A program made the position numbers and the translations under genes. A stretch of DNA of 64,000 nt from Bacillota bacterium (lineage in GTDB: Bacteria; Bacteroidota; Bacteroidia; Bacteroidales; Bacteroidaceae), in NCBI GenBank assembly GCA_023664625.1, contig JAMPFD010000003.1, positions 106,384 through 170,383 on the forward strand, given 5' to 3'. The notes beneath the pieces were generated by a model. That model was not told the DNA's origin. It did not search any database and worked only from the letters and a program-made list of their open reading frames with translations. Of this stretch, positions 14,727 through 47,096 are shown piece by piece. How positions within the stretch are numbered: the first letter of the stretch is position 1; every line of letters begins with the position of its first letter.

Positions 14727-17700
14727 TCATTCAGCTATCGTCGCAGCCATCAGGCCTATAACAACATCGTTGGCAGTTGTCTTCAGCTTCAGCCCCTTTA
14801 GCGGCTTACCCTTTTGGAGAGGAACATAAAGCACTGTTGCCGCACCGCCGGGAATAGTGCGCGAGGAGAGACCTTTCAGTCCGAGAGCCTTATCCATATC
14901 ATTGCTTACGATGCCTGATGCAAGGGCAACGCGATAAGGGCGCGGAGTCTCTATGCTGAATGCCTTGCCGTCAATGTAGAAGTCCTGCTCTATCGGAGCC
15001 CAGTTGTCCGGATTGCGAAGCTCAAGCCTGCGGGTTGTACCGTCTGCATATTCAATTGTGACAAGTCCGTTCCGGTGGCGGCTCTGCATGTGGTTGGTGC
15101 TGCCGGCAAGAAGCAGGTAGATTCCTTTGCCACAGCCTTCAAGGGCAACGCTCACCGAATCAGGATAGTTGTCCCATAACGATGTGAAGACGATGTTCCT
15201 CCCCTCCTTGTACGAACGGAACGGCACACCTTGCGGCATGCTGAACACACCATCAGTGATTTCCCTGCGGAAGCCGCTGTCGTCTATGTATGCCGTATCT
15301 CTCGGATGGCACCATTCGCCGATGCCCTGCAACGGTATCTGCAACGTTGTGTAAGGAGAGCGTGGCGAGGCATACGTGTTCCTGAAGATGTCCGTCACGC
15401 TTGCATTGACCAGACTGTCAAGGCTTACCATGCGGAAAGAATCGGCAGCATCCGGCTCCGGCAACACTGTCCCATAATCTTTTTCGCCGTCTCCCACGTA
15501 AGGAGACGGTTCCACAAGCGACCACCACTCCACTTTCCCCTGCCTCATGCGGGCAAAGGAGCCCTTTGTCTCTGACGGCCGGCAATGCTCATAGTCAACC
15601 GGAGAGCCGCTCCATTTCACAACCACCTTTATCTCCTTGGCGTACCGGCATTCCACGACGATGCGGGCACGCCCCACACTCACGTCATTCACCGGCGTGA
15701 CCGGCCGGCCGTTTACCTGTACGGCACCGTAGCTGTCAAGCAAAGCGGGGATTGTCAGCACCACGTCGGCAGGCTTCATGAAGCGCGGCCTGATAATGTA
15801 AGTGTCGGCAGTACCCTTACGCTTGAATTCGATGTCTATGTCAGGAGAGTGCAGCGAAGCATGATTCCAGGCGGCGGGGAAGCCAGGAGTGATGCTCACC
15901 TTATTGTCCAGCAAGTCCGGAGCGACACCGAAGAGCCCCTGCACCAGTGCCCTTGCCGCCACGCCTATCGGGTCGCCGAAGTCACGGTAGCACTCGCCGC
16001 GTGCACGGTCGTAATGGCTTATCTGTCCGAAATTTCCCGGGCAGCGTCCGAGATACATGCCGTCAATCACCGAACTCTTGAACAGCCGGAAGGCTTCCTC
16101 ATTCCGTCCCGCCTGCCAGAAAGCCAGAGCAGTATGCCACACCTCGGCGAAAGCCACATTATTTATGCTCCATGCGTAAGGCATCCAGTTGGTCGTGCTG
16201 ACGGTATGGCAGCTGCCCTCAATTCCCTTTCCCGTCACAGGGATATGCGGAATCTCACGGTCAACGTATTTTGTGGCACGGTAATATTGGAACATGTCTC
16301 CCACATCCGAGTCTATGGCGTGGTATATTGTCCATAATGCAGGCGAGGCATGCAGGCTGCGGCTACCCATATAGTCCTCATATTCAGCCCAGCAGCCTTT
16401 ATCCTCCATCCACAGGCGCGAGTCAAGGGCTTCCTTTATGCGCTCCGCCTCACGGGCATAGCGGCTGCCGTCCTCGCCGATGAGCGCGGCAATCCTTGCC
16501 GCCATCCTGTTCGCACGGTAGTTGTAAGCCGAGGAGTGGGTCACCGCCCCGCTGTTGTAGTAAAGGGCATCGCTTGCCCAGATGCAGCAGTACGCATCGT
16601 AGAGACCGTCGCCGTCAGGGTCGAAATTACGTTTTTCCCACTCCAGATGGCAGGTCAGGACATTCCACATCTTCCTTGCATAGGCGGTGTCGCCCGTCCA
16701 GCAGAGGTGCCACAGCAGTTCATTGATGTAGCAGAGGTTCATGTCATAATGGTGCATCTGGTCGTTACGGTTCGGGTTACGGCAGATATATCCGTTGCTG
16801 TACATCGGCGTCCCCCATTTCTTTTCGGCACGCGCATTGTTCATCTTCGCGTCCTGTGCAGGATGCGGGTATACAGGCTCACAGCCGGTGACCTGCGAGT
16901 TTGCGTAATTGTCGAAATGCCTCCGTGCACGGTCATGCCATCCCAGGAAGTCGCCGGCATAAGCCGCACGCCATCCGCTGAGCGGCATGCGCCAGGCATT
17001 GGCCCCATGGAGCCACACCTCGCCGTCCCAGATGCCGTCGGCAGCAGCCATGAGTGCTCCGCCGAGCGTGTTGATGTAAGGGTCTGGAGTGACAATCTCC
17101 AGCCGTGAGACAAGAGCCTTGCGCGCCTGTTCCGCCTCAGCAAAGAGTTCCCTTCCCTCAGCAACGGACACTTGACGGAGAGCGTTATCCTCATAAACTA
17201 TATACAGTTCTTTCCCCAAGAGTCCGTACTCCGCACACTCCGGCACGGCAGTCAGCGAGGGCTCGAAGCTGTCTGCCCTGTCCACACCAAGGTCGCCGCT
17301 GCGCTGAAGCTTCACAGCCCGTATGGGACATGTCTTTGAACGCAGGCGCATCTTCACCTTATCCGTGCGGAACATCCATACCGCTCCTTCCTTGTCGGCC
17401 AAAGGAATGGCTGTCACCGAGAGAGTCCCGCCTCCCCACCGCCTGTCCTTCAGCGTATAGTCCCTGCGCCCCGGAGCATAGCGTGACTTACAGTAGGCGG
17501 TGGAGTCAAGAGCTATGGTTTTGCCGCCTGCCACAACGCTGAACGCCACATGCCGGCTTTTCGGCTTGTTGTAGACGGCAAAGACGGGACGGTCGCTCGT
17601 CTCCAGCCGCCATGCGGTATGGGTGCCGTAGAGCGGGCGTGTGAAACGGTTCTTTCCGTTCACACAGACAAAGTCCTTGCCCTCAGGATAATACTGCATG

Positions 17701-23539: not shown

Positions 23540-25876
23540 TTAGAAGTCGAACTTGTCAAGTGCATCTGTGAAGTCCTTTGGAGTCTCCACTGCCGGCTGT
23601 GCAGGGGTCTCCTGGGCAGCATCATTGTTATTGAATGAAGGACGAGGACGACGCTCATTGCGCTGATTGCGGTCTCCGCGCTGTGGACGCTCGCGGCGTT
23701 CGCCACGCTCTGGACGAGGACGGCGCTCACGCTCGACGTATCCTTCCGGCTTTTCGATGAGGACACGGTGGGAGAGCTTGTACTTGCCGGTCTTCTGGTC
23801 GATGTCGATAAGCTTCACCTGAATATGGTCACCCTCCTTGATGCCTGCCTCTTCCACAGTCTCAAGACGCTTCCAGTCTATCTCTGAGATATGAAGAAGT
23901 CCGTCCTTGCCCGGCATAATCTCCACGAAACAGCCGTAAGGCATGATGGAGCGTACGGTTCCGTCGTATGTCTCACCGACTTCAGGGATGGCGACGATGG
24001 CCTTAATCTTGGCGAGGGCAGAGTCGATGGAGTCCTTGTTAGGCGCGCTGACCTGCACATGGCCGACGCCGTCAGCCTCCTCGATGGTGATTGTTGTGCC
24101 TGTCTCTTCCTGCATCTGCTGGATAATCTTGCCGCCGGGGCCTATCACCGCACCGATGAACTCCTTAGGTATGTCGATGGAAACGATGCGAGGAACCTGA
24201 GGCTTCATCTCTGTACGTGGTTCTGCGATTGTATCCGTGATGCAGTTGAGGATATGCTCACGGCCTGCCTTTGCCTGTGCGAGTGCCTTCTCGAGTATCT
24301 CGTAGGAGAGGCCGTCGCACTTGATGTCCATCTGTGTGGCTGTCAGACCGTCCTTCGTACCTGTGGTCTTGAAGTCCATGTCACCGAGGTGGTCCTCGTC
24401 ACCGAGAATGTCTGAGAGCACAGCATACTTGTCCTCTCCAGGGTTCTTGATAAGTCCCATGGCAATGCCTGATACAGGCTTCTTCATAGGAACGCCGGCA
24501 TCCATGAGGGCAAGTGTGCCCGCGCAGACTGTCGCCATTGAAGAAGAGCCGTTGGACTCAAGTATCTGCGACACGACACGCACGGTGTAAGGGAAGTCGG
24601 AAGGTATCTGACCCTTCAGTCCGCGCCATGCGAGATGGCCGTGACCGATTTCGCGACGGCCTACGCCACGCTGCGGCTTAGCCTCGCCGGTACAGAAAGG
24701 AGGGAAGTTATAGTGGAGGAGGAAGCGCATGTAGCTCTTGTCAAGGACATTGTCGACGAGCTTCTCGTCCATCTTGTTGCCGAGAGTGACGGTCGTGAGC
24801 GACTGTGTCTCGCCACGTGTGAAGATTGAGGATCCGTGAGGCATCGGCAGCGGAGAGACCTCGCACCATATCGGACGGATGTCCGTTGTCTTACGGCCGT
24901 CGAGGCGCACGCCCTCGTCAAGGATGCAGCGGCGCATGGCGTCCTTCTCTACATCATGATAGTACTTGTCGACAAGAGCGAACTTCTCTTCCATCTCGTC
25001 CTCTGTAAACTCAGCATGGGCAGCAGCGTATGCCTCCTTGAAGTCTGCCTTTATCTGCTCGAAAGCCTCTGCACGCGCATGCTTCTCAAGAGCCTGCTTG
25101 ACAACGTCGTAAGCCTTCTGGTAGCAGTCGGTCTTGACCTGCTCCTTCAGTTCGTCATCGTTGACCTCGTGGCAGTACTCGCGCTTAACGTCTGTGCCAA
25201 GTTCCTTCATCAGCTCGTACTGCATCTCGCACATAGGCTTGATGGCGGCATGAGCGGCCTTGAGTGCATTCAGGAGGTCTGCTTCCTGGACCTCTTTCAT
25301 CTCGCCTTCGACCATCATGATGTTCTCTGCCGTGGCACCGACCATGAGATCCATGTCGGCCTCTGCCATCTGGGCAAAGGTCGGGTTGATGACATACTCG
25401 CCGTTTACGCGTGCCACGCGCACCTCTGATATAGGGAACTCGAACGGAATGTCTGAACAAGCGAGGGCGCATGATGCGGCAAAGCCGGCAAGAGCGTCAG
25501 GCTGGTCAACTCCGTCAGCGGAGAAGAGGATGACGTTCACGAAAACCTCTGCATGGTAGTCGCTCGGGAAAAGCGGGCGGAGAGCGCGGTCAACAAGGCG
25601 GCAGGTGAGAATCTCGTCGTCACTTGCCTTGCCCTCACGCTTTGTGAAACCTCCCGGGAAGCGTCCTGCGGCAGCATACTGCTCGCGGTACTCAACCTGG
25701 AGAGGCATGAAGTCTGTTCCGGGCACTGCATCCTTTGCAGCGCATACTGTGGCAAGAAGGACGGTGTTGCCCATACGGAGCGTACAGCTGCCGTCTGCCT
25801 GCTTAGCCAACTTTCCTGTCTCAATAGTAATCTGACGTCCGTCAGGCAATGAGACTGTCTTTGTAATTACGTTCAT
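23540..25876 (-). CDS. pnp: Polyribonucleotide nucleotidyltransferase (PNPase)
   Basis: Two RNase PH domains, a KH domain, an S1 domain and a basic RG-rich tail ([18 protein letters not shown]). The start is moved to the internal ATG ([22 protein letters not shown]), which is the canonical PNPase N-terminus. Confidence 0.93.
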
Positions 25877-26224: not shown

Positions 26225-26298
26225 GGACTTGTAGCTCAGTTGGTTAGAGCAACAGACTCATAATCTGGAGGTCCCTGGTTCAAGCCCAGGCTGGTCCA
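26225..26298 (+). tRNA. tRNA-Met (anticodon CAT); integration target of the mobile element
   Basis: Folded by hand into a cloverleaf: acceptor ggacttg/ctggtcc, D-arm gctc-agttggtta-gagc, anticodon loop ctCATaa, T-arm cctgg-ttcaagc-ccagg. There is no encoded CCA. A terminator hairpin (ggagttacgaatttcgtaactcc + T6) follows at 26307-26336. Confidence 0.85.
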
Positions 26299-26344
26299 CT
26301 TTCAAAATCAAGGAGTTACGAATTTCGTAACTCCTTTTTTCTTA

Positions 26345-26368
26345 CCCTTGCGTAAACAATGCGTAAAC
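26345..26368 (+). repeat. Left-end arm-type repeat (GCGTAAACAA, two copies)
   Basis: gcgtaaacaatgcgtaaacaaac lies immediately inside the left direct repeat. The same 23-mer is at 45593-45616, about 110 bp inside the right direct repeat. Confidence 0.7.
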
Positions 26369-26899
26369 AAACTGTTTGAGTTGGCCGTGTTTAACACATA
26401 GAATTTCTATGATGCTCCATGTTATCCTGTAATACCTTTACCCGAAGTTTTGTTAGTGTGACGACACTTTACGATTAAATAAACTCAAATATACTCCATT
26501 TGTATATTGATTTACAGAATAATGTTGTAACTTTGCAAATGCAATGCATTTATGGCAAGCCATGACCAAGAGGTGCTTTTTCCTAATAAGGAAAAGTGGA
26601 TTTGTCTAACCTTCGTGGGAGGGTCATCCCATTCCGATGAATCGAAGCGTAGAGGGAGTATTAGTCGGAGAATACTCTATTTCAAACAATACGTGAGAGT
26701 TGCTTCAGGGGTTGAGACCGATTAGCAGAAGCCCGGTTACCAGTCAGCGACAGAAGACAACGAGATTGCACCGCTGCATATAACGACAATGTTTTTATCT
26801 GTCAAAGGATAGGGACTCAGTGGTTATATGCAGCGTTTTGTATATGTACGCCTCACATTGCAAAGCGGCTGTATTCAGAGGTTATGTTGAACATAAACA

Positions 26900-28402
26900 A
26901 TGAATGCAATGGAAAAATTAACCAAGTCATTGTCTCTTTTCAAAGAGCGTAACTGTTCTGTCTCTATCGTGTTGGATTCACGTACCCGCAGAAATAATGC
27001 GTGTGAGTTTCCATTATCTCTTCGTTTCACGATTGACCGCAAGTTCTTCTACTTTACAGTTGGAAGTTCTTTTACTGAGAAAAAGTTCTCGGACGTCTGC
27101 AATGCGATGAAATGTAAAAGCGAGAACTACAAACTTCAGAAGGAGTGGAAAGATACCATTGCCCCCAAGTACAAAGAAATCTTGATGAATCTGAACAAAG
27201 GCGGCATCCTAACATTTGAGATGGTACGTCAATGTATCATGGGTGAAGAAGTGGTGCTATCCAAAGAGAACACAACCCAATCACAATCCTTTATTAGTAT
27301 ATGGGAACAAGTCATTCACGAATTGCGTACAGAAGATGGAGGAGTACGTTTCACCACCGCAGAAAGTTATGAGTGTGCGCTCAAATCATTCAGAAAGATT
27401 CTTGGAGAAAATGCAATCAAGGGCTTTTGCATCTGTGCGGCAGAACTACAGAAATGGAAGGATGGTATGCACAATGGAGTTAAAGACGAAAATGGTGCGA
27501 TTGTCGGAAAAATCAGTGATACCACAGCCGGTATCTACTTGCGCTGTTGTCGTGCCGTATGGAACAGGTGTGTGCATGAGGGCTACCTCAAAAATGCTCC
27601 CTATCCTTTTTCCAACAAAAAAGAAAAAGGGCTTGTGAGCATTCCCAAGAGTGCAAAACGCAAGCAGAGTTTCCTGAACGTAAACCAGATGACAGAGCTT
27701 TATAACCTTTTCGTTTCAAAGCAATACCCCGAACATTGGGCGGAAGATTATATGAAACGTGCCCATTATTCATTAGGGCTGTTCCTTGCGCAATACCTGT
27801 GTAATGGTTTCAACATGGCTGATGCCGGACGGCTGACTTACAACAGTTATTATTACCAGACAGAAGGTAAGGCGTTCCGCTTCAATCGCAAAAAGACTTC
27901 CCGAAGATGCCCCGATGGTTCCGAGGTGATAGTTCCTATTATCCCTCCCTTACAATATATCTTGGATGAGATTGCTGCGCCTCCGACTCGTGATGGCTTG
28001 GTGTTCCCCGACATATTAAAGGGAGCGGAGACAGAAGAACTGCGCCGCAAATACACGGTACAAGAAAACTCAAACGTGAAGGACCGAGTTATCAAGATTT
28101 GTCATGAGGCATTGAATTGGGACAAGTCTATCTGCCCGTCCAGGACATGGTGCCGACACTCATTTGCCACCAACTTACATAATGCCGGAGTGGATATGGA
28201 TTATATTTCGGAGAGCATGGGACACGCTTCTTCAGACCATGCCATCACTCAAATCTACATTGAACATTATCCTCTCGATATACAAATGCAAAACAATTCA
28301 AAGTTGCTAAACTTGAAGAACACTTCTGAGAGAGATGCTTTGTTGGCGAAGCTGGCAAGCATGTCCACAGAAGAACTGCTCAAATTATTCAGACAACCTT
28401 AA
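26900..28402 (+). CDS. int: Tyrosine-type site-specific recombinase / integrase
   Basis: 500 aa. C-terminal catalytic region with R...HSFATNL (HxxR) ... GHASSDHAITQIY (catalytic Tyr), and an N-terminal SAM-like/arm-binding region. It is the first gene inside the element next to attL. Confidence 0.88.
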   Translation: MNAMEKLTKSLSLFKERNCSVSIVLDSRTRRNNACEFPLSLRFTIDRKFFYFTVGSSFTEKKFSDVCNAMKCKSENYKLQKEWKDTIAPKYKEILMNLNKGGILTFEMVRQCIMGEEVVLSKENTTQSQSFISIWEQVIHELRTEDGGVRFTTAESYECALKSFRKILGENAIKGFCICAAELQKWKDGMHNGVKDENGAIVGKISDTTAGIYLRCCRAVWNRCVHEGYLKNAPYPFSNKKEKGLVSIPKSAKRKQSFLNVNQMTELYNLFVSKQYPEHWAEDYMKRAHYSLGLFLAQYLCNGFNMADAGRLTYNSYYYQTEGKAFRFNRKKTSRRCPDGSEVIVPIIPPLQYILDEIAAPPTRDGLVFPDILKGAETEELRRKYTVQENSNVKDRVIKICHEALNWDKSICPSRTWCRHSFATNLHNAGVDMDYISESMGHASSDHAITQIYIEHYPLDIQMQNNSKLLNLKNTSERDALLAKLASMSTEELLKLFRQP

Positions 28403-28408
28403 TCCGTA

Positions 28409-29659
28409 ATGCTGATGATAAATTTCATAGAAAGGATAAAATCCTATTCCAAAAGGAAGGATGCGGCTGATATGGCTATCCGTGCATGGATATCAGCTAA
28501 CGAAGACGTGTATGCCAACTTTTGTAAGCGCATAGATGCTGTGGCTAAAGGTGACATATCAGTTCTGATGGACATGTATCTGATGATGCGGGATTGCGTA
28601 CCACCCGAAGCCTTATTGATGTATAACTGGCTCTCTGATTTTGCGAACGGCAAAGATGTAACAGCCATCACGAACCAACAATGGGCTGGCCAATATACCG
28701 AGACCATCGCCAAATGTATCACCAACAAGCGTTTGTGGATAGGCATCAATGTAAAAACGGGTACTGTAGAACTGATTACTTCTCCGAAATCAGGGCTGCT
28801 GATGATTCATTCTGAAACGCCTATTGAAATATGGAATCATCTGCCACAAGAGTTGAGGTCCTACTTGATTGGGCAATTAGATATGTTCATGAGAAACAGC
28901 AAAGGATGCTATCTGTTGAGCAAACTGGAAAGAAAAATGGTTTATCAGTTCCTGACCTATATCTCTCAAATTGTTTTCCTCTCTCATGCGGTATTCATTG
29001 GCGGGTTCATGGCTAACCTGTATGACCGTGTAATGGAAAAGAAAGAGGATTTGGCTTATTGCATGTATTATTTTGTAGTGTTTGACCATGGTCTGTCCCG
29101 TATGGCAAAGTTGCTTAATCGTCTGCTGAACAGTGAAGAGGTTGAACATGGCGATATGCTTTTGATAAAGTCATGTGTTACACTTCTTGTCAATAGAAGT
29201 GTAGAGATAGGTACAGAAACCAAAGCGGATTGGGAAAACACCGTTGAGAGGTGTAACCCAGAAATCTGGAAAGAAGTGATGTTCGCCTTACGAAAAGTAA
29301 AAGGCAGCCGTGGAAACAAGAAAGTGATACAGTCATTGGATGATATTCTTTTGGGCGACAAGGAACGTATCAAGCAGGGTATTCATTTGTTCCTTGAAGA
29401 GAATACCGAGAATATAAGCCTTGCCTATTTATTGAAATCATTGGTAAAGTCCGGCAAGATAAAAGCATCCACAAGGTACATGACATTTCACCGTGCCATC
29501 GAACAATTCTTCCAACGACATTATGGGCACGATATACCGCAGAAGCGATACGGAGAAATCAAGGAACTCATTTTGAATTCGCCCCAAAGAGGAAACAGTT
29601 ATACCAAGGCTAAACGAATAATAGACCGATGGACGGACTATTTTATCAATAACGGGTAG
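28409..29659 (+). CDS. Hypothetical protein (416 aa) co-transcribed with the integrase
   Basis: Starts 6 nt after the int stop with coding-like composition. No recognisable motifs. Confidence 0.5.
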   Translation: MLMINFIERIKSYSKRKDAADMAIRAWISANEDVYANFCKRIDAVAKGDISVLMDMYLMMRDCVPPEALLMYNWLSDFANGKDVTAITNQQWAGQYTETIAKCITNKRLWIGINVKTGTVELITSPKSGLLMIHSETPIEIWNHLPQELRSYLIGQLDMFMRNSKGCYLLSKLERKMVYQFLTYISQIVFLSHAVFIGGFMANLYDRVMEKKEDLAYCMYYFVVFDHGLSRMAKLLNRLLNSEEVEHGDMLLIKSCVTLLVNRSVEIGTETKADWENTVERCNPEIWKEVMFALRKVKGSRGNKKVIQSLDDILLGDKERIKQGIHLFLEENTENISLAYLLKSLVKSGKIKASTRYMTFHRAIEQFFQRHYGHDIPQKRYGEIKELILNSPQRGNSYTKAKRIIDRWTDYFINNG

Positions 29660-29835
29660 TTGGGAAATTCAGCTATCCGTTTTTCTGCAAACATCTGTTG
29701 TAATTCGGTCGGTAAATTTAAGGTATAAATAAACCGACCAACCCACAGAGTTTCACACACTACCTTTGCTTGCGAAATCGGTTTCACAGAGTTGAACCGA
29801 GGCTTAAAGTATTTAATCACCAAACAAGTAAAGGT

Positions 29836-30153
29836 ATGGAAGAAAAACTCAATCTCAACCAACTACTCCAAAAGCCCATCGCCATGATGACAGGCGAGGA
29901 GCTATGTTTTCTCATCACCAAAAGCATGGAGAACACAGAAGTAGCCACTCCCCAGATGGTATCCAAAGGCAACTACTATGGCATCGAAGGAATCGCCCGT
30001 GTATTCGGTTGTAGCGTACCCACCGCAAACCGCATCAAGAAAAGCGGAATCATAGACAAGGCCATCACGCAGATAGGACGCAAGATAGTGGTGGATGCAG
30101 ACCTTGCGCTGTCTTTGGCAAAAGAAGCAGGTGGCATTCATATAAAGGAGTAG
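29836..30153 (+). CDS. DUF3853-type helix-turn-helix protein (excisionase-like)
   Basis: 105 aa with GIEGIARVFGCSVPTANRIKKSGIIDKAITQIGRKIV, the HTH typical of Bacteroides mobile-element Xis-like proteins. The start is taken at the ATG at 29836. Confidence 0.65.
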   Translation: MEEKLNLNQLLQKPIAMMTGEELCFLITKSMENTEVATPQMVSKGNYYGIEGIARVFGCSVPTANRIKKSGIIDKAITQIGRKIVVDADLALSLAKEAGGIHIKE

Positions 30154-30157
30154 TGGT

Positions 30158-39957: not shown

Positions 39958-41538
39958 CTACTTTTCTTTCCAATACTGAACAACTTCAAACAAGTCGCCT
40001 TTTTGCAATTCTTTAATATTAGATACACATTGTCCGTTATCTAATTTTTCAAGATTTCGCAGAGTTCGAGATCCATCCTTTTCACTCAGACCTAAGAATT
40101 TGTTTATTGCTTTTGTATTATTAAGGTCGTTTATCGGTAAAAGGAATGCTGTTTCACATTCTTGCGAGAAATCGAAATTGCCTTGGTTATACTCCGATAT
40201 GCCTTGAGAGAGAAGAACTATAGAGACTCCATATGACCGAATTTTTCTAAGTAAAACTTCCAAAATCTCCAAAGACTTTTTTTCTCGGAATAAATCGTGA
40301 GCTTCATCAATCATTAACACATAACGCATGCTTCGGTTACCATCAATGACTTCTGTGCCACCCATATTTGTGAACACATTAAAGATGTAATTAATGATGA
40401 GGAAGATTGACGTGAATCGAACCGTACTATCCAGCTCACCTGATAGAGAAAAATAATAATTGTTATTTAGGAAGATACTTGGATCATTAACTCTTGACGC
40501 AAAGAGTTCATATTCACTAAGACGTTCCATAATTTCAGTAAGAGTGTCACGGTTATCGCCAACCGATTCAATTACCAAATCATAGATTTCCTTCAATGAA
40601 GGATGCTTACCGTCTTTATGTTGAATAAACGCTTCTTTGGTAGCATCTTTTAGTGTTTGTTGCTGCCTCTTGCCGATATTGGAGTATTTAGCAATAATGT
40701 CAACAAACTTATTTATACCTACCAGTTTGTTCTTTTCGTTAACATTGTCAATGAATGAAACGGGATTCAAAGGGAATGGTGTATGAGGCGCATTTATACA
40801 TTCTGTATGAGTTTCTGTAAAAAAGTCACTCATTTTGTTTTTGTCATCCTCACTCAATCCCTTAAAATCAAGGAACAAGAAGTTGACTTGCCCTTGCGTC
40901 TGCTTATATAGTTGACGAAGAAACTCAAGTGCGAATTGAGTCTTACCGGAACCTGACTTTCCGGCAACAGCAATATGCTGATTATTGTAACGAGTGGAAT
41001 CGTTGAAACAGCAATATATATTCTCACCTGTCGAAATATTATAGCCCACTTTTATTTGGATTGGTCCTGAAAAGGTAGTTTTTGTGATATGTTGATTTCG
41101 ATTTTCAACACAATCAAATCTTTCAGGAGTATCCTCAATCAAATCAATTCCTTTTCTGAAGTATTCAGTTAAGAAATCGAAGAAAGTATATTGTGGATTG
41201 TTTTCAAACAGATAATTTATCTTTTCTAATCCATGGTCAATATGCAACTTTATATATTTGGGAATAAGCTCATCGTTTTTAGTTATTCCATATGCCTGAC
41301 AAATTAAGGCAATATAGAAATCTCTATACTGTCCATCAAACAGAATATGGTCTTTGTATTCTTTTCCTTGTGAATCGTAGGTAGAAAATTCCTGTTGGGT
41401 AAAGCGTTTTCCCGTAGACAAAGAATAGCCTAATGCAATACGAGCTATCACATTTTCTTTTGTACCCCCAGTAAGTTTTTTTGTTAATTGGGTTACAATG
41501 GCTTGATTTTCGCCAGATGTTTTGATGTTAATTTGCAT
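39958..41538 (-). CDS. Fusion protein: N-terminal DndE-like domain + C-terminal HerA/FtsK-type (DUF87-like) P-loop ATPase
   Basis: 526 aa. Residues 1-115 (LTKKLTGGTKENVIARIALGYSL ... KYIKLHIDHGLEKI) follow the DndE pattern (TGxTxNVxARxAxxxSL ... HxxDGI). Residues 190-460 carry Walker A AVAGKSGSGKTQF and Walker B LMIDEAHDLF. Overlaps the dndD-like gene by 11 nt. Confidence 0.7.
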   Translation of the reverse strand: MQINIKTSGENQAIVTQLTKKLTGGTKENVIARIALGYSLSTGKRFTQQEFSTYDSQGKEYKDHILFDGQYRDFYIALICQAYGITKNDELIPKYIKLHIDHGLEKINYLFENNPQYTFFDFLTEYFRKGIDLIEDTPERFDCVENRNQHITKTTFSGPIQIKVGYNISTGENIYCCFNDSTRYNNQHIAVAGKSGSGKTQFALEFLRQLYKQTQGQVNFLFLDFKGLSEDDKNKMSDFFTETHTECINAPHTPFPLNPVSFIDNVNEKNKLVGINKFVDIIAKYSNIGKRQQQTLKDATKEAFIQHKDGKHPSLKEIYDLVIESVGDNRDTLTEIMERLSEYELFASRVNDPSIFLNNNYYFSLSGELDSTVRFTSIFLIINYIFNVFTNMGGTEVIDGNRSMRYVLMIDEAHDLFREKKSLEILEVLLRKIRSYGVSIVLLSQGISEYNQGNFDFSQECETAFLLPINDLNNTKAINKFLGLSEKDGSRTLRNLEKLDNGQCVSNIKELQKGDLFEVVQYWKEK

Positions 41539-43642
41539 ATCCGCTATTGTTGTATTCTTCGAAAAGATTTTCTGGTTTCACTTCAACAAAGTGTGAACCA
41601 TTCTTCTCATTATTTATTAAATAGGATTTATTCACAATCGGTTGAATATATTGATATTCTTCTTCCGTCAATTCTTTTTTAAGAAGGGGAAAGAGAATCA
41701 CTTGTTTTGAAACATTTGGATAGAACTTCGTGAGTACATTCTTTGTATGTTGTGGGTCAAATTTCTGCATAGGACTATCTATGAAAACAGGAAAATCAAT
41801 TTCTGTTTCATCAACCAAAGCACTTAACAGCGCAGATGCAAACATCTGGCGTTCACCCATGGAAAGAATGCTATTGTCAATTTTCTTGTCATCATATCCA
41901 AATAGGCAGATGTCAACATCATCGCCATTGCCATTGATGTCAACAATTACCTTTTTAACAAGATTGGTCTTGTGCAAATATGATTGAAGTTTTGTCTCTA
42001 ATTTCTTCGCAAGAGCCTTTTTCTTTTCATCTTTGAAGCGAATAAGGAATTTTTGTATCGTATTGATCAGACGCGTAGCCTCATTGTCAACTGCGCGGTT
42101 CTGATCAGACACATTTATTTTTTTAGAGAGAATCTCCTTTTGCTTTTTGTGAGCAATCACTTGTTCTTGAAGTGATTCTATTTCACTTTGTCTTTTCCCG
42201 ATCTCAATACCTATAGAATCTATCTGACGGTCGATATTCTCTTTTCGGGTTCTCAAATCTTGAACATAATCGCTCTCTGCCTTTTTCTCAGCCTCTCGAA
42301 TGTTCTTTTCGATTGTGTATAATTCTGATTTAGCCTTGGTGTATTTGTTAATTAGATTTTCAAAAGAGGACTTACTATCTTTGATTTTCGCAATAATATG
42401 CGTAAATTCATCAATCTGTCCTTGGCTAAAGTCATGCAACGTACTGAAGTGCTCAAACTTACTTTCATCAGAAACATTGTAAAAATGCTTTTTGATGAGT
42501 TGTCTGATTTGAAGCTCGTAGAAGTCTCTAGTCTTTATATCTATTGAGAAATGAAGATCCTTCTTTGCTTCTTCAATATCGCCAAGTATGACATCAGTTT
42601 TATCATTAACTCCTTCCAACTGAAGCTTGTTCTGCTTATACGCTTTTTCTGTTTCTAATTGGGTTGAAAGTTCAGCCATAATACCTCCAGCCAAGCCAAA
42701 TGGAATAAGACTGTATAAATCTTTAAGACTGTCATCTGCTTCCCTTAACACTATGCCAAGTTCCTCCTTTCGATTATTCAATTTTTGCAATTCATCGGCT
42801 GACATCATATCGCCTTCACGAATCAATTTTGATTGAAGTTCGGCAGAATTATGACGTTTAAACACTCTGTCTTCTTCCAAATTAGATATTTCTTCGATCA
42901 ATCTGCCAATTTCTCCTTCTTTAAAATCAATATCTGCGATTAGCCCATTAAACTCGCGCTTCTCTTGAGGTTTAGCAGATGATTTCCTATAATCATCCTG
43001 AATTCTAACCAACTCATTTTTGAGATCTTCGTATTTCTGTATGCCAAGAACTTGAGAATATGCAAGACTTAAATCTTTTCGTTGTTCTGGAGTATTTATT
43101 TGAGCAAATGAAACTATCTTTTCTGCATCAAAGAAAAAGAATTTTGCAATCTCTATTGGAAGTATGTAATCCCGAATAAATATTTCCTCTTCTTTTGCAA
43201 TTTCCTCTTTTGATCCCGTGAACAAATCGTTCTTCCGGCCATCAATCAGAATTTCTAACTCGTCATCATAATTTGTTGCACTATCATAGGAACGAACAAT
43301 TGTTATCTCGGTGCAAGGCGTATCAGGAATTTCTACGTCCGTAAATGTAACGGACACAGAGAACCGAGTTTCGCCTTCTTTCTGTGCAGCAAAGTTGAGA
43401 CTATTACCAATGTATTTACTATAACCTCCTTTTTCGTCAATTTCTTTACGATATAGTTCATCAACCTTCCCCATGTTCTTACCATATAGGCACCAAACTA
43501 ATGACATGAGAAAAGTTGTTTTGCCGAAACCATTATTACCACTGACGATAATCAGATTCCTATTCCCATCGGGAAAAAGTTCAATCTTATTCTTCCCTTT
43601 ATAAATTCGGAAATTATTAAGTTCTATTTCGCGTATCGTCAT
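41528..43642 (-). CDS. dndD: DndD-like SMC/ABC-type ATPase (DNA sulfur-modification protein DndD / SspC family)
   Basis: 704 aa. N-terminal Walker A VSGNNGFGKTTFL, a long coiled-coil, C-terminal ABC signature LSMGERQ, and a D-loop/Walker B FPVFIDSP. A 4-nt overlap with the dndC-like gene suggests translational coupling. Confidence 0.75.
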   Translation of the reverse strand: MTIREIELNNFRIYKGKNKIELFPDGNRNLIIVSGNNGFGKTTFLMSLVWCLYGKNMGKVDELYRKEIDEKGGYSKYIGNSLNFAAQKEGETRFSVSVTFTDVEIPDTPCTEITIVRSYDSATNYDDELEILIDGRKNDLFTGSKEEIAKEEEIFIRDYILPIEIAKFFFFDAEKIVSFAQINTPEQRKDLSLAYSQVLGIQKYEDLKNELVRIQDDYRKSSAKPQEKREFNGLIADIDFKEGEIGRLIEEISNLEEDRVFKRHNSAELQSKLIREGDMMSADELQKLNNRKEELGIVLREADDSLKDLYSLIPFGLAGGIMAELSTQLETEKAYKQNKLQLEGVNDKTDVILGDIEEAKKDLHFSIDIKTRDFYELQIRQLIKKHFYNVSDESKFEHFSTLHDFSQGQIDEFTHIIAKIKDSKSSFENLINKYTKAKSELYTIEKNIREAEKKAESDYVQDLRTRKENIDRQIDSIGIEIGKRQSEIESLQEQVIAHKKQKEILSKKINVSDQNRAVDNEATRLINTIQKFLIRFKDEKKKALAKKLETKLQSYLHKTNLVKKVIVDINGNGDDVDICLFGYDDKKIDNSILSMGERQMFASALLSALVDETEIDFPVFIDSPMQKFDPQHTKNVLTKFYPNVSKQVILFPLLKKELTEEEYQYIQPIVNKSYLINNEKNGSHFVEVKPENLFEEYNNSGYAN

Positions 43643-44979
43643 GATTTCTTTTTATTTACAAATTCCTCTAAACGAGACTCAATTTCTGTTTTCAAGCCAC
43701 GGCGTCGCTGCATGAGTGACTTGCTTTTCTGAAGCATAAGAAGTTGCTCTATCAATTCACCTTCTTCAAGGTTCTCTTGGCAAATTTCTTTCATCAAATC
43801 TGCTTCCAATTTGTTTTTTATCTTGCCCTCTTCCATATTTAATGAGGAATTATAGATTTTGTTATATATTTCTGATACTTGATGTGCAAAGTTAAAATCT
43901 CGATACCAATTCACTTGAATTGCAATCAATTCTTGATCTGTAATGAGTTTTATTTCAGGATTATATTGTTGCAATTCATGTTGAACATTTAACAGTCCTT
44001 CCAACATTTTCGCTCTATATGTGAAAGTGTAGGATCCCATATCGTTCACGGCTCTTCTTCCATCCCGTCGCAACGGGAACCGATTCTCAATGATATTCCG
44101 TTCTTGATCCAGTTTTAACCTAAAATCATAAAGCGGTTGCATCCATTCTCGCCCATTTTTTATAAGCGAACGCATGGACTTATCATCCTTCACAACAGTA
44201 CAAGTCCAACAACCGAAACGACTTTGACCACAAGAACCATGACTTTTGTCTGTTACAACGGTTGGACATTCGTAATCGTCCGCACTCGCATCAACATAAA
44301 TGTTAAACAGGATTTTGTTATCAAATCCCCAAGGAGATGGAATGGTATTTATTATGTACCAGACTTCTTCTAACATCAATTCTTTGATTGGTGCATAGAC
44401 ATATGTATTTGTCAACAGAGTATGATTGGTAAGTCGCTTGCCATGAATTTCATGTTTCTTGATGGAACGAGCGCGAGTTGCACTTTCAGCCTTTCTTGTT
44501 CCTATTAAAATTATAGCTTCCCCACACTCGTCAACTTGTTCAATTATAAAACGAGCAGTAGGTTTAATTTTCATTTTCTCTGTACACCATCTAAATGCTG
44601 TGTTCGGGACAGGATAACCTTTCCCGATAACATTCACCCAAAATGAATCTTCCAATCGAGGCGTAGTCTTCCGGACAAAAATAGGCAAATCTTCTTCTCT
44701 CGCTTTTTTTTCTATCTGTTCAAGAACTTGATCAACATACGATGCAATTATAGGATTTTCAACCATTGTATCATTACATACTACATATATTGGTCTACGA
44801 AGTTGAAATGGCCCCGGTAGTTCTTTTAATTTTTCGAGCGCAATCCATACAAGCATTAATAATACTGTTGAATCTTTTCCTCCACTGAATCCTATAATCC
44901 ATGGTCGGGTTGATTCATCAGCATACGCATACTGGTCAAGAATTTCATCTATTATATATTCAATACGTTTATTCCTCAT
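43639..44979 (-). CDS. dndC: DndC-like PP-loop ATP pyrophosphatase (PAPS reductase fold) with a Cys cluster
   Basis: 446 aa with the PP-loop IIGFSGGKDSTVLL and the cysteine cluster CPTVVTDKSHGSCGQSRFGCWTCT, typical of the DndC/SspD Fe-S site. Confidence 0.75.
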   Translation of the reverse strand: MRNKRIEYIIDEILDQYAYADESTRPWIIGFSGGKDSTVLLMLVWIALEKLKELPGPFQLRRPIYVVCNDTMVENPIIASYVDQVLEQIEKKAREEDLPIFVRKTTPRLEDSFWVNVIGKGYPVPNTAFRWCTEKMKIKPTARFIIEQVDECGEAIILIGTRKAESATRARSIKKHEIHGKRLTNHTLLTNTYVYAPIKELMLEEVWYIINTIPSPWGFDNKILFNIYVDASADDYECPTVVTDKSHGSCGQSRFGCWTCTVVKDDKSMRSLIKNGREWMQPLYDFRLKLDQERNIIENRFPLRRDGRRAVNDMGSYTFTYRAKMLEGLLNVQHELQQYNPEIKLITDQELIAIQVNWYRDFNFAHQVSEIYNKIYNSSLNMEEGKIKNKLEADLMKEICQENLEEGELIEQLLMLQKSKSLMQRRRGLKTEIESRLEEFVNKKKS

Positions 44980-45018
44980 TTCGGATTTTTATCATAAATC
45001 AGACATTTGATTTATAGG

Positions 45019-45231
45019 TTAAAAAGTTTTAAAGTCTTTATTCACTAAATCGGTCAATTCGACATCTAATAGGTGTGATATTTTAATTAGGGTTTCAATA
45101 TCTGGCTGAGAACTATTTGTACACCATTTTGAAACGGTGGATGGGTTGACATTTAATTGCTCACACAACCACTTATTTGTTCTCTTCTTCTCCGCTAAAA
45201 CAACTTTCAGACGATTTATATCTGTTTCCAT
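45019..45231 (-). CDS. XRE-family HTH transcriptional regulator (controller-like), first gene of the operon
   Basis: 70 aa. LAEKKRTNKWLCEQLNVNPSTVSKWCTNSSQPDIETLIKISHLLDVELTDLV is a Cro/C1-type HTH. Lies 40 nt upstream of the dndC-like gene. Confidence 0.7.
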   Translation of the reverse strand: METDINRLKVVLAEKKRTNKWLCEQLNVNPSTVSKWCTNSSQPDIETLIKISHLLDVELTDLVNKDFKTF

Positions 45232-45728
45232 CTTGGCAAAATTTGTTATTTTCTCACAAAAATAGTGATTTCATTTCACTCGACAAAAGAAATGGATTAG
45301 TTTATGATAAAAATAACCAGAAATACTGATTTGAATCATTATAATAAACACAGTTGCTATAGAAGTTCTATTTATATGTTATCAATACACGTAGTGTCGG
45401 AGTTAGTGTGTAAGTTGGTGTTAGAGTTGATATTAAAAGTGTCAGAGTGTCCTTACTATCTATGTCTATAGTGCTAATACATTCTTGTCGCAAACCTCAA
45501 AAATAATTGCGACAACATCATGCCTTATGTCAATAGATGGTACTTGTATTTGTTAAATGGGCTTAGTACAGTCTTCGCTCCTGCTTGTTTCTGCGTAAAC
45601 AATGCGTAAACAAACTATTTCAGTTAGGGGGATTTAGTGAATTTCATAGAGGATAGCGAATTTTGCAACTAACTGATATTCAACAAAGATTAATAAAACG
45701 GACTATCACAGAATATCATCTTATCGTT

Positions 45729-45812
45729 CTCATAATCTGGAGGTCCCAGGTTCAAGCCCTGGCTGGTCCACAAACAAAATCAAGCGGTTACGAATTTCGT
45801 AACTGCTTTTTT
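45729..45812 (+). repeat. attR direct repeat: displaced copy of the tRNA-Met 3' half plus terminator hairpin
   Basis: ctcataatctggaggtcc-caggttcaagccctgg-ctggtccac...gcggttacgaatttcgtaactgc-tttttt. The T-stem has the swapped compensatory pair (ccagg/cctgg, against cctgg/ccagg in the intact tRNA). Confidence 0.85.
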
Positions 45813-46451: not shown

Positions 46452-47096
46452 TCACAGCAGATACTTCACAGCCTCAGGGCCTTCGTTGAAGAGGAGGTCG
46501 AGGATGGATAGGCCGGGAAGGAAACCGTGGCGTTCACGGTAGACTTGATAGTAAGGTTGTGGGGAGCAGATTGCGGGGAGCAGATTGTGGGGAACAGGAG
46601 TCTTTGGTGAGATGAGATAGCGATAGTCCTGAGCCTCCGCAAGTTTGTCTGAAGGAATGAATTCCTCGGTAAAGCCAAAGGTAATGTCAAGGTCAAGGAG
46701 GCGGCACATGAGTTCCGCGGAGGCCATGTTGTAGTCGAGGAGGTAGTCCTTATGTACGGGTGATGACGGTCCTTCGTCGATGAAGAAGGGCCGGATGTCG
46801 TCCTGATAGTACTCGAAGAATGCGGATTCGCCGTAGGCTGTGCAGAGTGCCTGCCAGTGGAGGTGTCGCCAGTTGCCGTGGTCGGAGATGCGTATGTCCT
46901 TGATGAGTTGGCTGCTGCCGTGGGTCACGGGGACAGTGAGAGCCTGTGTGCCGTTGGCGGTGGCTATGACGCAGCGGTTTCTGTAGGTCTGCTTCCGGAA
47001 CGACTCACATGCTTCTATGGAGACGTGCGAGCCGGAGCAACGGCTCAGGAGTGAATACCATTGCACAGGACCGAAATATGTTGTTGAGAGTATCAA
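46452..47096 (-). CDS. WbqC-like family protein
   Basis: 214 aa in the usual size range and layout. There is a stop three codons upstream in frame, so the start is the TTG at 47094-47096, preceded by the ATAACC leader. Confidence 0.55.
   Translation of the reverse strand: MILSTTYFGPVQWYSLLSRCSGSHVSIEACESFRKQTYRNRCVIATANGTQALTVPVTHGSSQLIKDIRISDHGNWRHLHWQALCTAYGESAFFEYYQDDIRPFFIDEGPSSPVHKDYLLDYNMASAELMCRLLDLDITFGFTEEFIPSDKLAEAQDYRYLISPKTPVPHNLLPAICSPQPYYQVYRERHGFLPGLSILDLLFNEGPEAVKYLL

Follow-up and report, generated by a model that had tools for sequence, protein, structure and literature searches.

A 64-kb window of contig JAMPFD010000003.1 (assembly GCA_023664625.1), the whole stretch of DNA that was analyzed, contains a 19,472-bp interval that is very probably an integrative mobilizable element (IME) inserted in a transfer RNA gene with the anticodon CAU, hereafter called tRNA(CAU). 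Integration appears to have taken place on the anticodon side of the gene, and the gene to have been restored by a 3' half that the element brought with it. The anatomy of the element, the host or element origin of each of its sides, and its horizontal spread were shown to the extent that comparison of sequences allows. The original prediction, made from the letters of this DNA, had described the interval as an NBU-like mobilizable element in tRNA-Met.

Element boundaries and position of the crossover

One tRNA with the anticodon CAT was found in the 64-kb window, at 26225-26298 on the forward strand (ARAGORN; Rfam tRNA model, 64.6 bits). A repeat search returned an 84-nt direct repeat at 26257-26340 and 45729-45812, with 90% identity between the copies and 19,472 bp from start to start, which opens with the first base of the anticodon loop (CTCATAA) and takes in the remaining 3' part of the tRNA as well as the terminator hairpin. 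A direct repeat had been predicted here and was confirmed, with its size corrected from about 80 bp and its coordinates from 26256-26336 and 45729-45812. A 22-nt part of the repeat occurs at only these two sites in the window, versus an expectation of 0.00 from shuffled sequences. A chance repeat was rejected. The longest unbroken identity, the 19-bp core CTCATAATCTGGAGGTCCC, lies at 26257-26275 and 45729-45747; the identical segment of the original prediction starts correctly at the anticodon loop and had been given as 18 bp. GC content is about 53% in the flanks versus 33-47% between the repeats, and the drop is limited to the interval. The intact tRNA, the 84-nt repeat and the drop in GC content together bear out the predicted layout, an element bounded by a rebuilt tRNA and a displaced 3' fragment. 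The features of the left (attL) and right (attR) attachment sites are listed here.

26225-26298, forward strand: tRNA(CAU) gene at attL (ARAGORN; Rfam, 64.6 bits), isotype Met or Ile2
26257-26275, forward strand: attL copy of the identical 19-bp core, which spans the anticodon loop and everything up to the second base of the T-stem
26257-26340, forward strand: attL copy of the repeat, with the tRNA 3' half (U51-A63) and the element-borne terminator hairpin at 26310-26336
26349-26393, forward strand: left arm repeat, TGCGTAAACAA twice (26349-26370) and then ACTGTTTGAGTT, candidate arm-type integrase sites
45592-45636, forward strand: right arm repeat, TGCGTAAACAA twice (45592-45613) and then ACTATTTCAGTT, 137 bp before the core
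45637-45728, forward strand: right (P) arm to the core, identical to the copy in Bacteroides acidifaciens
45729-45812, forward strand: attR, with the displaced tRNA 3' fragment at 45729-45770 (A51-U63) and the host terminator hairpin

The T-stem reads CCTGG/CCAGG at attL versus CCAGG/CCTGG at attR, the pair 51:63 being U-A at attL and A-U at attR. The calculated cloverleaf energy was -19.0 kcal/mol for both versions and -14.4 and -13.9 kcal/mol for mixed stems, in agreement with the earlier claim of a complementary pair swap that leaves each copy foldable. The terminator hairpins at 26310-26336 and 45782-45808 differ by a compensated G-C to C-G change and by an A-T to G-T change, with fold energies of -16.4 and -15.5 kcal/mol and of -12.1 and -9.5 kcal/mol for mixed arms. 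That the repeat extends about 42 nt past the tRNA is explained by homology of the element and host terminators. The original prediction had mentioned neither this change in the terminator nor the TGCGTAAACAA repeats and the dnd cargo described below.

The crossover cannot be placed from a single genome, because positions 5' and 3' of the T-stem would both leave self-consistent stems. The right 2.05 kb of the element (43679-45728) is 99.6% identical to a sequence of B. acidifaciens DSM 15896 (L048) that adjoins a displaced tRNA fragment in that genome. When the two were compared base by base, identity extended through the right arm and the 19-bp core, and the first differences fell at positions 51 and 63, where the B. 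acidifaciens attR has T and A, respectively; similarity to the window ends after CCACAAA, beyond which the trailers are unrelated. Since the alleles and trailers differ past the core at attR, the DNA 3' of the core is that of the respective host, and the crossover is therefore placed within the 19 bp. This backs the original prediction, in which the crossover was confined to the segment from the anticodon loop to the variable region. Backbones 89-92% identical to that of the window adjoin the same tRNA at four loci in other Bacteroidales (L009, L018, L020, and L084), always with the T..A (U-A) allele and the same element-type terminator. This recurrence of the attL allele and terminator with the backbone supports the further claim that the element supplies its own tRNA 3' end.

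In the attachment site of the circular form (attP), homology to the tRNA starts exactly at the anticodon loop in this subfamily and 1-6 nt earlier in other subfamilies, which suggests that the 7-nt loop CTCATAA is most probably the overlap region, as judged from the left edge of identity and as in the common anticodon-centred class. With an intact tRNA and a like-oriented fragment of it at opposite ends, a tyrosine integrase gene between them, and identity that begins in the anticodon loop with host-specific DNA 3' of it at attR, the interval has the features of an anticodon-centred tRNA gene (tDNA) island.

Mobility genes

A backbone of mobility genes occupies the left part of the interval, as follows.

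26909-28402, forward strand: tyrosine integrase, 497 aa (Pfam SAM_5 and Phage_integrase; catalytic residues)
28409-29659, forward strand: DUF6043 protein, conserved backbone (Pfam)
29836-30153, forward strand: DUF3853 helix-turn-helix protein, 105 aa (Pfam)
30158-31543, forward strand: VapE-like NTPase of primase-helicase-associated type (Pfam VapE-like_dom, E = 2.5e-74)
31677-32024 and 32076-32771, forward strand: two backbone genes without assigned function
32772-32940: candidate origin of transfer (oriT), by position only; intergenic stretch preceding the relaxosome genes, in which an inverted repeat lies at 32828-32870
32941-33339, forward strand: NikA/MbpA-like relaxosome accessory protein
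33355-34563, forward strand: relaxase with a MobA/VirD2 nuclease domain (PF03432), MbpB-like
34588-35130, forward strand: 180-aa protein following the relaxase, kept in sister elements

The IntCTnDOT subgroup of tyrosine recombinases is built of arm-binding, core-binding, and catalytic domains (PMC8138268). A SAM_5-type core-binding domain and the catalytic residues R..R-H..H..Y are present in the integrase, in which R327, R416, H417, H439, and Y450 were invariant in an alignment of 24 homologues. Residues 1-95 were predicted by AlphaFold2 with confidence as a beta-rich N-terminal domain of four strands plus a helix. A Foldseek search of the PDB with the integrase model returned no match at E <= 0.001. 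The integrase family is large, forming clusters of thousands of sequences that carry generic names only, and a literature search returned no description of the family, nor of IMEs in tRNA-Met or tRNA-Ile2 in Bacteroidales.

The accessory protein matched the NCBIfam model MbpA with E = 5.8e-15 (55 bits versus an equivalog cut-off of 90) and the relaxase matched MbpB with E = 1.5e-35 (123 bits versus a cut-off of 400). A profile scan found no genes for a mating pore (type IV secretion system, T4SS) or a coupling protein among all 17 open reading frames (ORFs) of the interval, the sole weak TrwB-like match lying within a DndE-ATPase fusion of the cargo. With an integrase and a relaxase (PF03432, MbpB-like) and no T4SS or coupling genes among its ORFs, the element is, on its gene content, an IME with its own relaxase. 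The set of mobility genes named in the original prediction was thus largely recovered: the integrase and the relaxase without a T4SS match Pfam and NCBIfam models with all interval ORFs accounted for, the "mobC" gene corresponds to the NikA/MbpA-like accessory protein, and the "Xis-like" gene is present as the DUF3853 helix-turn-helix protein, a candidate excisionase or directionality factor. For the "primase-like" gene a VapE-like gene was found in which no primase domain was detected.

Proposed integration mechanism and alternative explanations

In the mechanism proposed here, the integrase would have joined a circular attP to the tRNA(CAU) gene by a crossover within the 19-bp core. The predicted attP reads ...ATCTTATCGTT-CTCATAATCTGGAGGTCCC-T-GGTTCAAGCCC-A-GG...CTTTCAAAATCAAGGAG, and the predicted empty site (attB) consists of the tRNA with A51-U63 followed by CAAACAAAATCAAGCGG. 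After integration the host 5' part and promoter would be kept, the T-arm, the 3' strand of the acceptor stem, and the terminator would come from the element, and the original host 3' half and terminator would be displaced by 19.5 kb as the non-functional attR fragment. The matched difference at 51:63 would have arisen because an element copy shaped in a U51-A63 (T..A) donor entered a host with A51-U63 (A..T), each copy remaining internally consistent. The N-terminal domain of the integrase probably binds the TGCGTAAACAA tandem repeats, one pair of which lies on either side of the core. Excision would be the reverse reaction, probably aided by the DUF3853 helix-turn-helix protein, and transfer would rely on the action of the element's own relaxase and NikA-like protein on oriT and on the mating pore of a co-resident conjugative element.

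The element is flanked by pnp (23540-25876, reverse strand) and a WbqC-family gene (46452-47096, reverse strand). Among named relatives, Palleniella muris is the closest by WbqC (82% identity), and the host was therefore assigned to a mouse-gut Prevotellaceae lineage. At a locus in a more distant Prevotella (L130; WbqC 80% identical), the orthologous pnp-tRNA arrangement and the promoter region are shared, but the tRNA is unbroken and no element is present. The terminator native to that locus, GCAGTTACGGAATCCGTAACTGC, is similar to the trailer at attR in the window, so that this trailer looks native to the host lineage. Imperfect repeats of about 20 nt (tatatac...ttttctgtttt) were also seen downstream of this empty-site tRNA (14950-15130, viewed on the reverse strand). 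Comparison with related genomes lacking the insertion had been suggested with the original prediction; of these, the distant L130 site was found empty, and the collections searched contained no same-species empty site. The search for WbqC homologues returned no relative closer than 82% identity, and the P. muris contigs end before the tRNA.

Several observations weigh against the proposed mechanism. In the collections searched, the site was never seen empty within the species: each of the four contigs that encode the exact PNPase and WbqC flank proteins, among them those of assemblies GCA_023664025.1 and GCA_023667065.1, carries the element. The exact integrase and HATPase_c_3 proteins of the element occur only in this host lineage. 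The nearest empty-site relative, L130, has the U-A allele, and the A-U allele of the host is inferred from attR alone. No circular attP junction was detected, the single match of the metagenome scan (L144) being a scar, and no helper conjugative element is visible within the 64-kb window. The B. acidifaciens comparison covers only 2 kb. The AlphaFold2 model of the integrase is poor outside the N-terminus (mean pLDDT 62), including the catalytic domain; Pfam matches the catalytic domain only weakly and gave no hit for an arm-binding domain (Arm-DNA-bind_5).

Some of these observations would also fit a fossil island, which integrated as proposed and is now unable to excise or transfer in this host. 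Occupancy of all four host-lineage contigs, the missing circle in the metagenome scan, and the lack of a visible helper in the window are compatible with such a state, as are scars of decayed elements at this site. In L144 (10310-10645), a human gut metagenome contig, the right end of a sister element abuts a 117-bp scar made up of a tRNA 3' part, the element-type terminator, and TGCGTAAACAA twice, beyond which the chromosomal flank resembles that of Phocaeicola vulgatus. Judged by this order of parts, the scar is the remnant of an older, deleted element, and element-borne tRNA 3' halves can therefore stay in chromosomes. A fossil in the present host is nevertheless improbable, insofar as the backbone ORFs are all intact, both arms keep their paired repeats, gene calls are equal in the sister assemblies, and the element is nearly identical to a copy in another family.

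Another possibility is that the crossover occurred 3' of the T-stem, at the junction with the acceptor stem as in NBU1, in which case the U-A pair would be the host's and the A-U pair the element's. This placement would likewise leave self-consistent stems, it agrees with the U-A allele of L130, the closest empty-site relative, and the shared GGCTGGTCCAC would permit a second identical segment there. It is nonetheless very unlikely. The P arm and core of the B. acidifaciens copy are identical to those of the window, yet its attR T-stem carries the opposite allele; for the stem to belong to the element, a pair of matched substitutions would have to have arisen where the two copies are otherwise 99.6% identical. 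The attL allele, moreover, travels with the element-type terminator at L009, L018, L020, and L084, and attP homology begins exactly at the anticodon loop.

Hardly credible is a third explanation, which assumes two like T-stems at the time of integration and a later, in-place compensatory double mutation in one of them. When one genome per species was scanned for the exact pattern, at least 120 loci were recovered in Bacteroides, Phocaeicola, Prevotella, Paraprevotella, and relatives. Among the matches listed, 49 full tRNA genes have A..T and 37 have T..A at positions 51 and 63, and the displaced fragments comprise 16 with A..T, 15 with T..A, and one with a mismatched T..T; two copies at contig edges are left out of these counts. 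Nothing was found that directly favors mutation in place. A displaced fragment would be free to drift, as the mismatched T51/T63 stem of one such fragment (L095) may illustrate, yet the attR stem, for which there would be no selection for pairing, is perfectly paired. The second compensated difference, in the terminator, is what is expected of two separately selected genes, and both T-stem states are widespread alleles of the intact gene; in-place compensatory mutation was rejected on these grounds. The T/T stem of L095 itself would be expected if a non-functional copy had drifted or if, as a rare event, the crossover had fallen within the T-loop. As far as these alignments show, the T-stem "swap" is a standing polymorphism across Bacteroidales and an expected by-product of anticodon-loop integration. 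The matched difference claimed in the original prediction thus stands, and the special event implied by the term "compensatory swap" does not, the two states being a common polymorphism of Bacteroidales tRNA genes. Finally, a phage satellite or prophage remnant, to which the pairing of an integrase with a VapE-like gene that is typical of satellites might point, was rejected as scarcely conceivable, since a relaxase and a NikA-like protein are present and no structural genes (capsid), terminase, or packaging genes were found.

Arm repeats and other elements at the same tRNA

The integration mechanism proposed above assigns a role to the tandem repeat of TGCGTAAACAA, which follows the tRNA by 50 nt at attL and precedes the core by 137 nt at attR. 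Six matches to TGCGTAAACAA with no more than one mismatch occur in the window, versus 0.99 expected, and in the circular attP both pairs would flank the core in direct orientation. Among the matches listed, 80 full tRNAs have sufficient sequence downstream, and 42 of these are followed at the same distance (+50) by an 11-bp tandem repeat. Its sequence varies between subfamilies, the motifs being TGCGTAAACAA, GGTGACCTTCA, TGCGAAAACAA, TGCGAACAnnn, GGGAAAACAAT, and GTGAAATTCAG. Wherever the sequence ahead of a displaced fragment was readable, one of these motifs lies 137-209 nt upstream, in combination with the matching right-arm type. These fixed positions and subfamily-specific sequences suggest that the paired 11-bp tandem repeats are probably arm-type integrase sites.

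Elements at this tRNA also occur in tandem arrays. At seven loci (L008, L021, L027, L062, L105, L112, and L119) the left end of an element from another subfamily begins immediately after the displaced fragment. When 8-kb loci were compared, an integrase homologue (E = 1e-35 to 1e-145) was found just inside attR on the opposite strand at L008, L021, L027, L075, L090, and L116; the window integrase, unlike that of several other subfamilies, lies just inside attL. Among the matches listed, 42 of 80 species representatives were occupied, and tRNA(CAU) is accordingly a heavily used hot spot for elements.

Identity of the target tRNA

The tRNA begins with a G1-C72 pair and is therefore not an initiator tRNA. 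Its acceptor stem contains a U6-U67 mismatch that is common to all 86 full copies elsewhere, among the matches listed, and is therefore considered native. The best match among 5,426 E. coli genomes was tRNA-Ile with the anticodon CAT (tRNA-Ile2), with 58 of 74 positions identical (78%), and ungapped identity to E. coli metT was 51 of 74 (69%). The T-arm and the C4-G69 pair, the latter of which we take to be a TilS determinant, are Ile2-like. No second CAT tRNA was found in any Bacteroidales locus compared. The isotype is either Met or Ile2, and these likenesses make Ile2 somewhat more likely. The "tRNA-Met" of the original prediction is therefore right as to the CAT anticodon, on which alone the Met isotype rests; the closest E. 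coli tRNA is tRNA-Ile2(CAT).

Defence cargo

The right part of the interval carries the following genes, all on the reverse strand.

35371-36747, reverse strand: SLFN/AlbA_2-HATPase_c_4-HTH protein
36862-37791, reverse strand: Methyltransf_35 protein (putative O-methyltransferase)
37788-39152, reverse strand: HATPase_c_3 protein
39166-39957, reverse strand: Mrr-type endonuclease
39958-41538, reverse strand: DndE fused to a DndH-like ATPase
41528-43642, reverse strand: DndD/PbeC (PADLOC; DndD 278 bits, PbeC 714 bits)
43639-44979, reverse strand: DndC (PADLOC; 472 bits)
45019-45231, reverse strand: HTH_3 regulator, always preceding dndC

The presence of DndC and DndD (PADLOC) and of a DndE domain indicates that the cargo is, by homology, a dndC-dndD-dndE DNA phosphorothioation module accompanied by restriction-type genes. 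DndA, DndB, and the DndFGH restriction module are absent from the element, in which only a DndH-like ATPase domain, fused to DndE, was found. GpsA/GpsT phosphorothioates have been reported to result from the dndCD clusters of Bacteroidales isolates, whether dndBE is present or not, and many gut isolates lack DndA, for which IscS or SufS substitutes (PMC12914056). The module of the window resembles the gut Bacteroidales dndBCDE systems in having DndC, DndD, and a DndE domain without DndA, and differs from them by its fusion of DndE to a DndH-like ATPase.

The exact DndC protein was present in 651 index blocks of the collection, in many genomic contexts. In the other copies the identical HTH-DndC-DndD-DndE/ATPase module is usually followed by a 139-aa gene, DndB, and an SLFN-Fic protein; the window instead has the Mrr, HATPase_c_3, and Methyltransf_35 genes in place of DndB and the 139-aa gene, and these occur as exact proteins only in this host lineage. 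The Methyltransf_35 protein is 309 aa long in the window and in GCA_023667065.1 and was called as 248 aa in GCA_023664025.1, which may reflect a difference in start site or a frameshift between sister assemblies. Sister elements carry other loads. The element at L018 and L078 combines this backbone with a SacI-type restriction-modification pair, an SLFN/AlbA_2 protein, and an Mrr/M78 protein, and the cargo at L144 comprises two methyltransferases and SIR2-HerA.

Discussion

The element is a well-resolved and apparently undescribed member of a well-known class. Tyrosine-integrase islands that are centred on the anticodon and restore their target tRNA are the commonest known class: 2083 of 3919 islands in the Islander collection have an anticodon-centred attP, and tandem arrays are recorded among them (PMC4383910). 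The likeness to class A of Islander extends to a tyrosine integrase, a target tRNA that the island splits and rebuilds with its own DNA, a displaced and directly oriented 3' fragment at the far end, a repeat that starts in the anticodon loop, and tandem arrays. Nothing essential differs, the repeat here running about 42 nt past the tRNA.

The comparison with NBU1 and NBU2 is less close. The core of NBU1 and NBU2 is 13-14 bp, and mobilization of NBU1 relies on the single protein MobN1. The present element shares with them the standing of a Bacteroidales IME with a tyrosine integrase, its own relaxase, a presumed dependence on a helper, and a tRNA target (PMC5704250). NBU1 and NBU2 recombine at the 3' end of tRNA-Leu and tRNA-Ser, respectively, and not in the anticodon loop (PMC10865867, PMC5704250); the target here is tRNA(CAU), with a core that starts from the anticodon loop. 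The mobilization module also differs, consisting here of two proteins, a NikA/MbpA-like protein and an MbpB-like relaxase, as do the accessory genes for the DUF6043, DUF3853, and VapE-like proteins. The designation "NBU-like" in the original prediction therefore holds only by analogy, as a term for an IME, and fails as to the attachment site. The targets of Bacteroidota IMEs listed in a 2017 review are tRNA-Leu (NBU1, MTnPi4), tRNA-Ser (NBU2), and tRNA-Pro (Tn6031), with none targeting tRNA-Met or tRNA-Ile2 (PMC5704250). The order of accessory protein, relaxase, and third small gene recalls the mbpA-mbpB-mbpC module of pLV22a type. That module is plasmid-borne, whereas the one described here is chromosomally integrated, scores far below the equivalog cut-offs, and has a third gene without a match.

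The element leaves the understanding of tRNA-targeting islands unchanged. New here are the paired arm repeats, the use of the tRNA as a hot spot, and its possible tRNA-Ile2 identity. In addition, the T-stem and terminator polymorphisms provide a map of the position of recombination that can be read from sequence alone. A wider reading, which is offered tentatively and is on balance doubtful, holds that tRNA(CAU) may be where a very large and as yet unnamed guild of mobilizable elements lands in Bacteroidales, and that these elements would permanently overwrite the 3' half and terminator of the host tRNA through decay or imprecise loss. If this were true, the guild would comprise at least six subfamilies, each with its own 11-bp arm-repeat "code" at fixed positions and able to stack in tandem, and the patchy 51:63 alleles and the element-like "native" terminators would reflect element traffic rather than vertical evolution.

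The arm repeats and the 19-bp core could serve as the basis of site-specific integration vectors for Prevotellaceae, as NBU2 has for Bacteroides. The element also shows how defence genes travel from one family of gut Bacteroidales to another aboard a shared integrase-relaxase backbone, with dnd genes here, and restriction-modification or SIR2-HerA genes in sister elements, as interchangeable loads on that one backbone.

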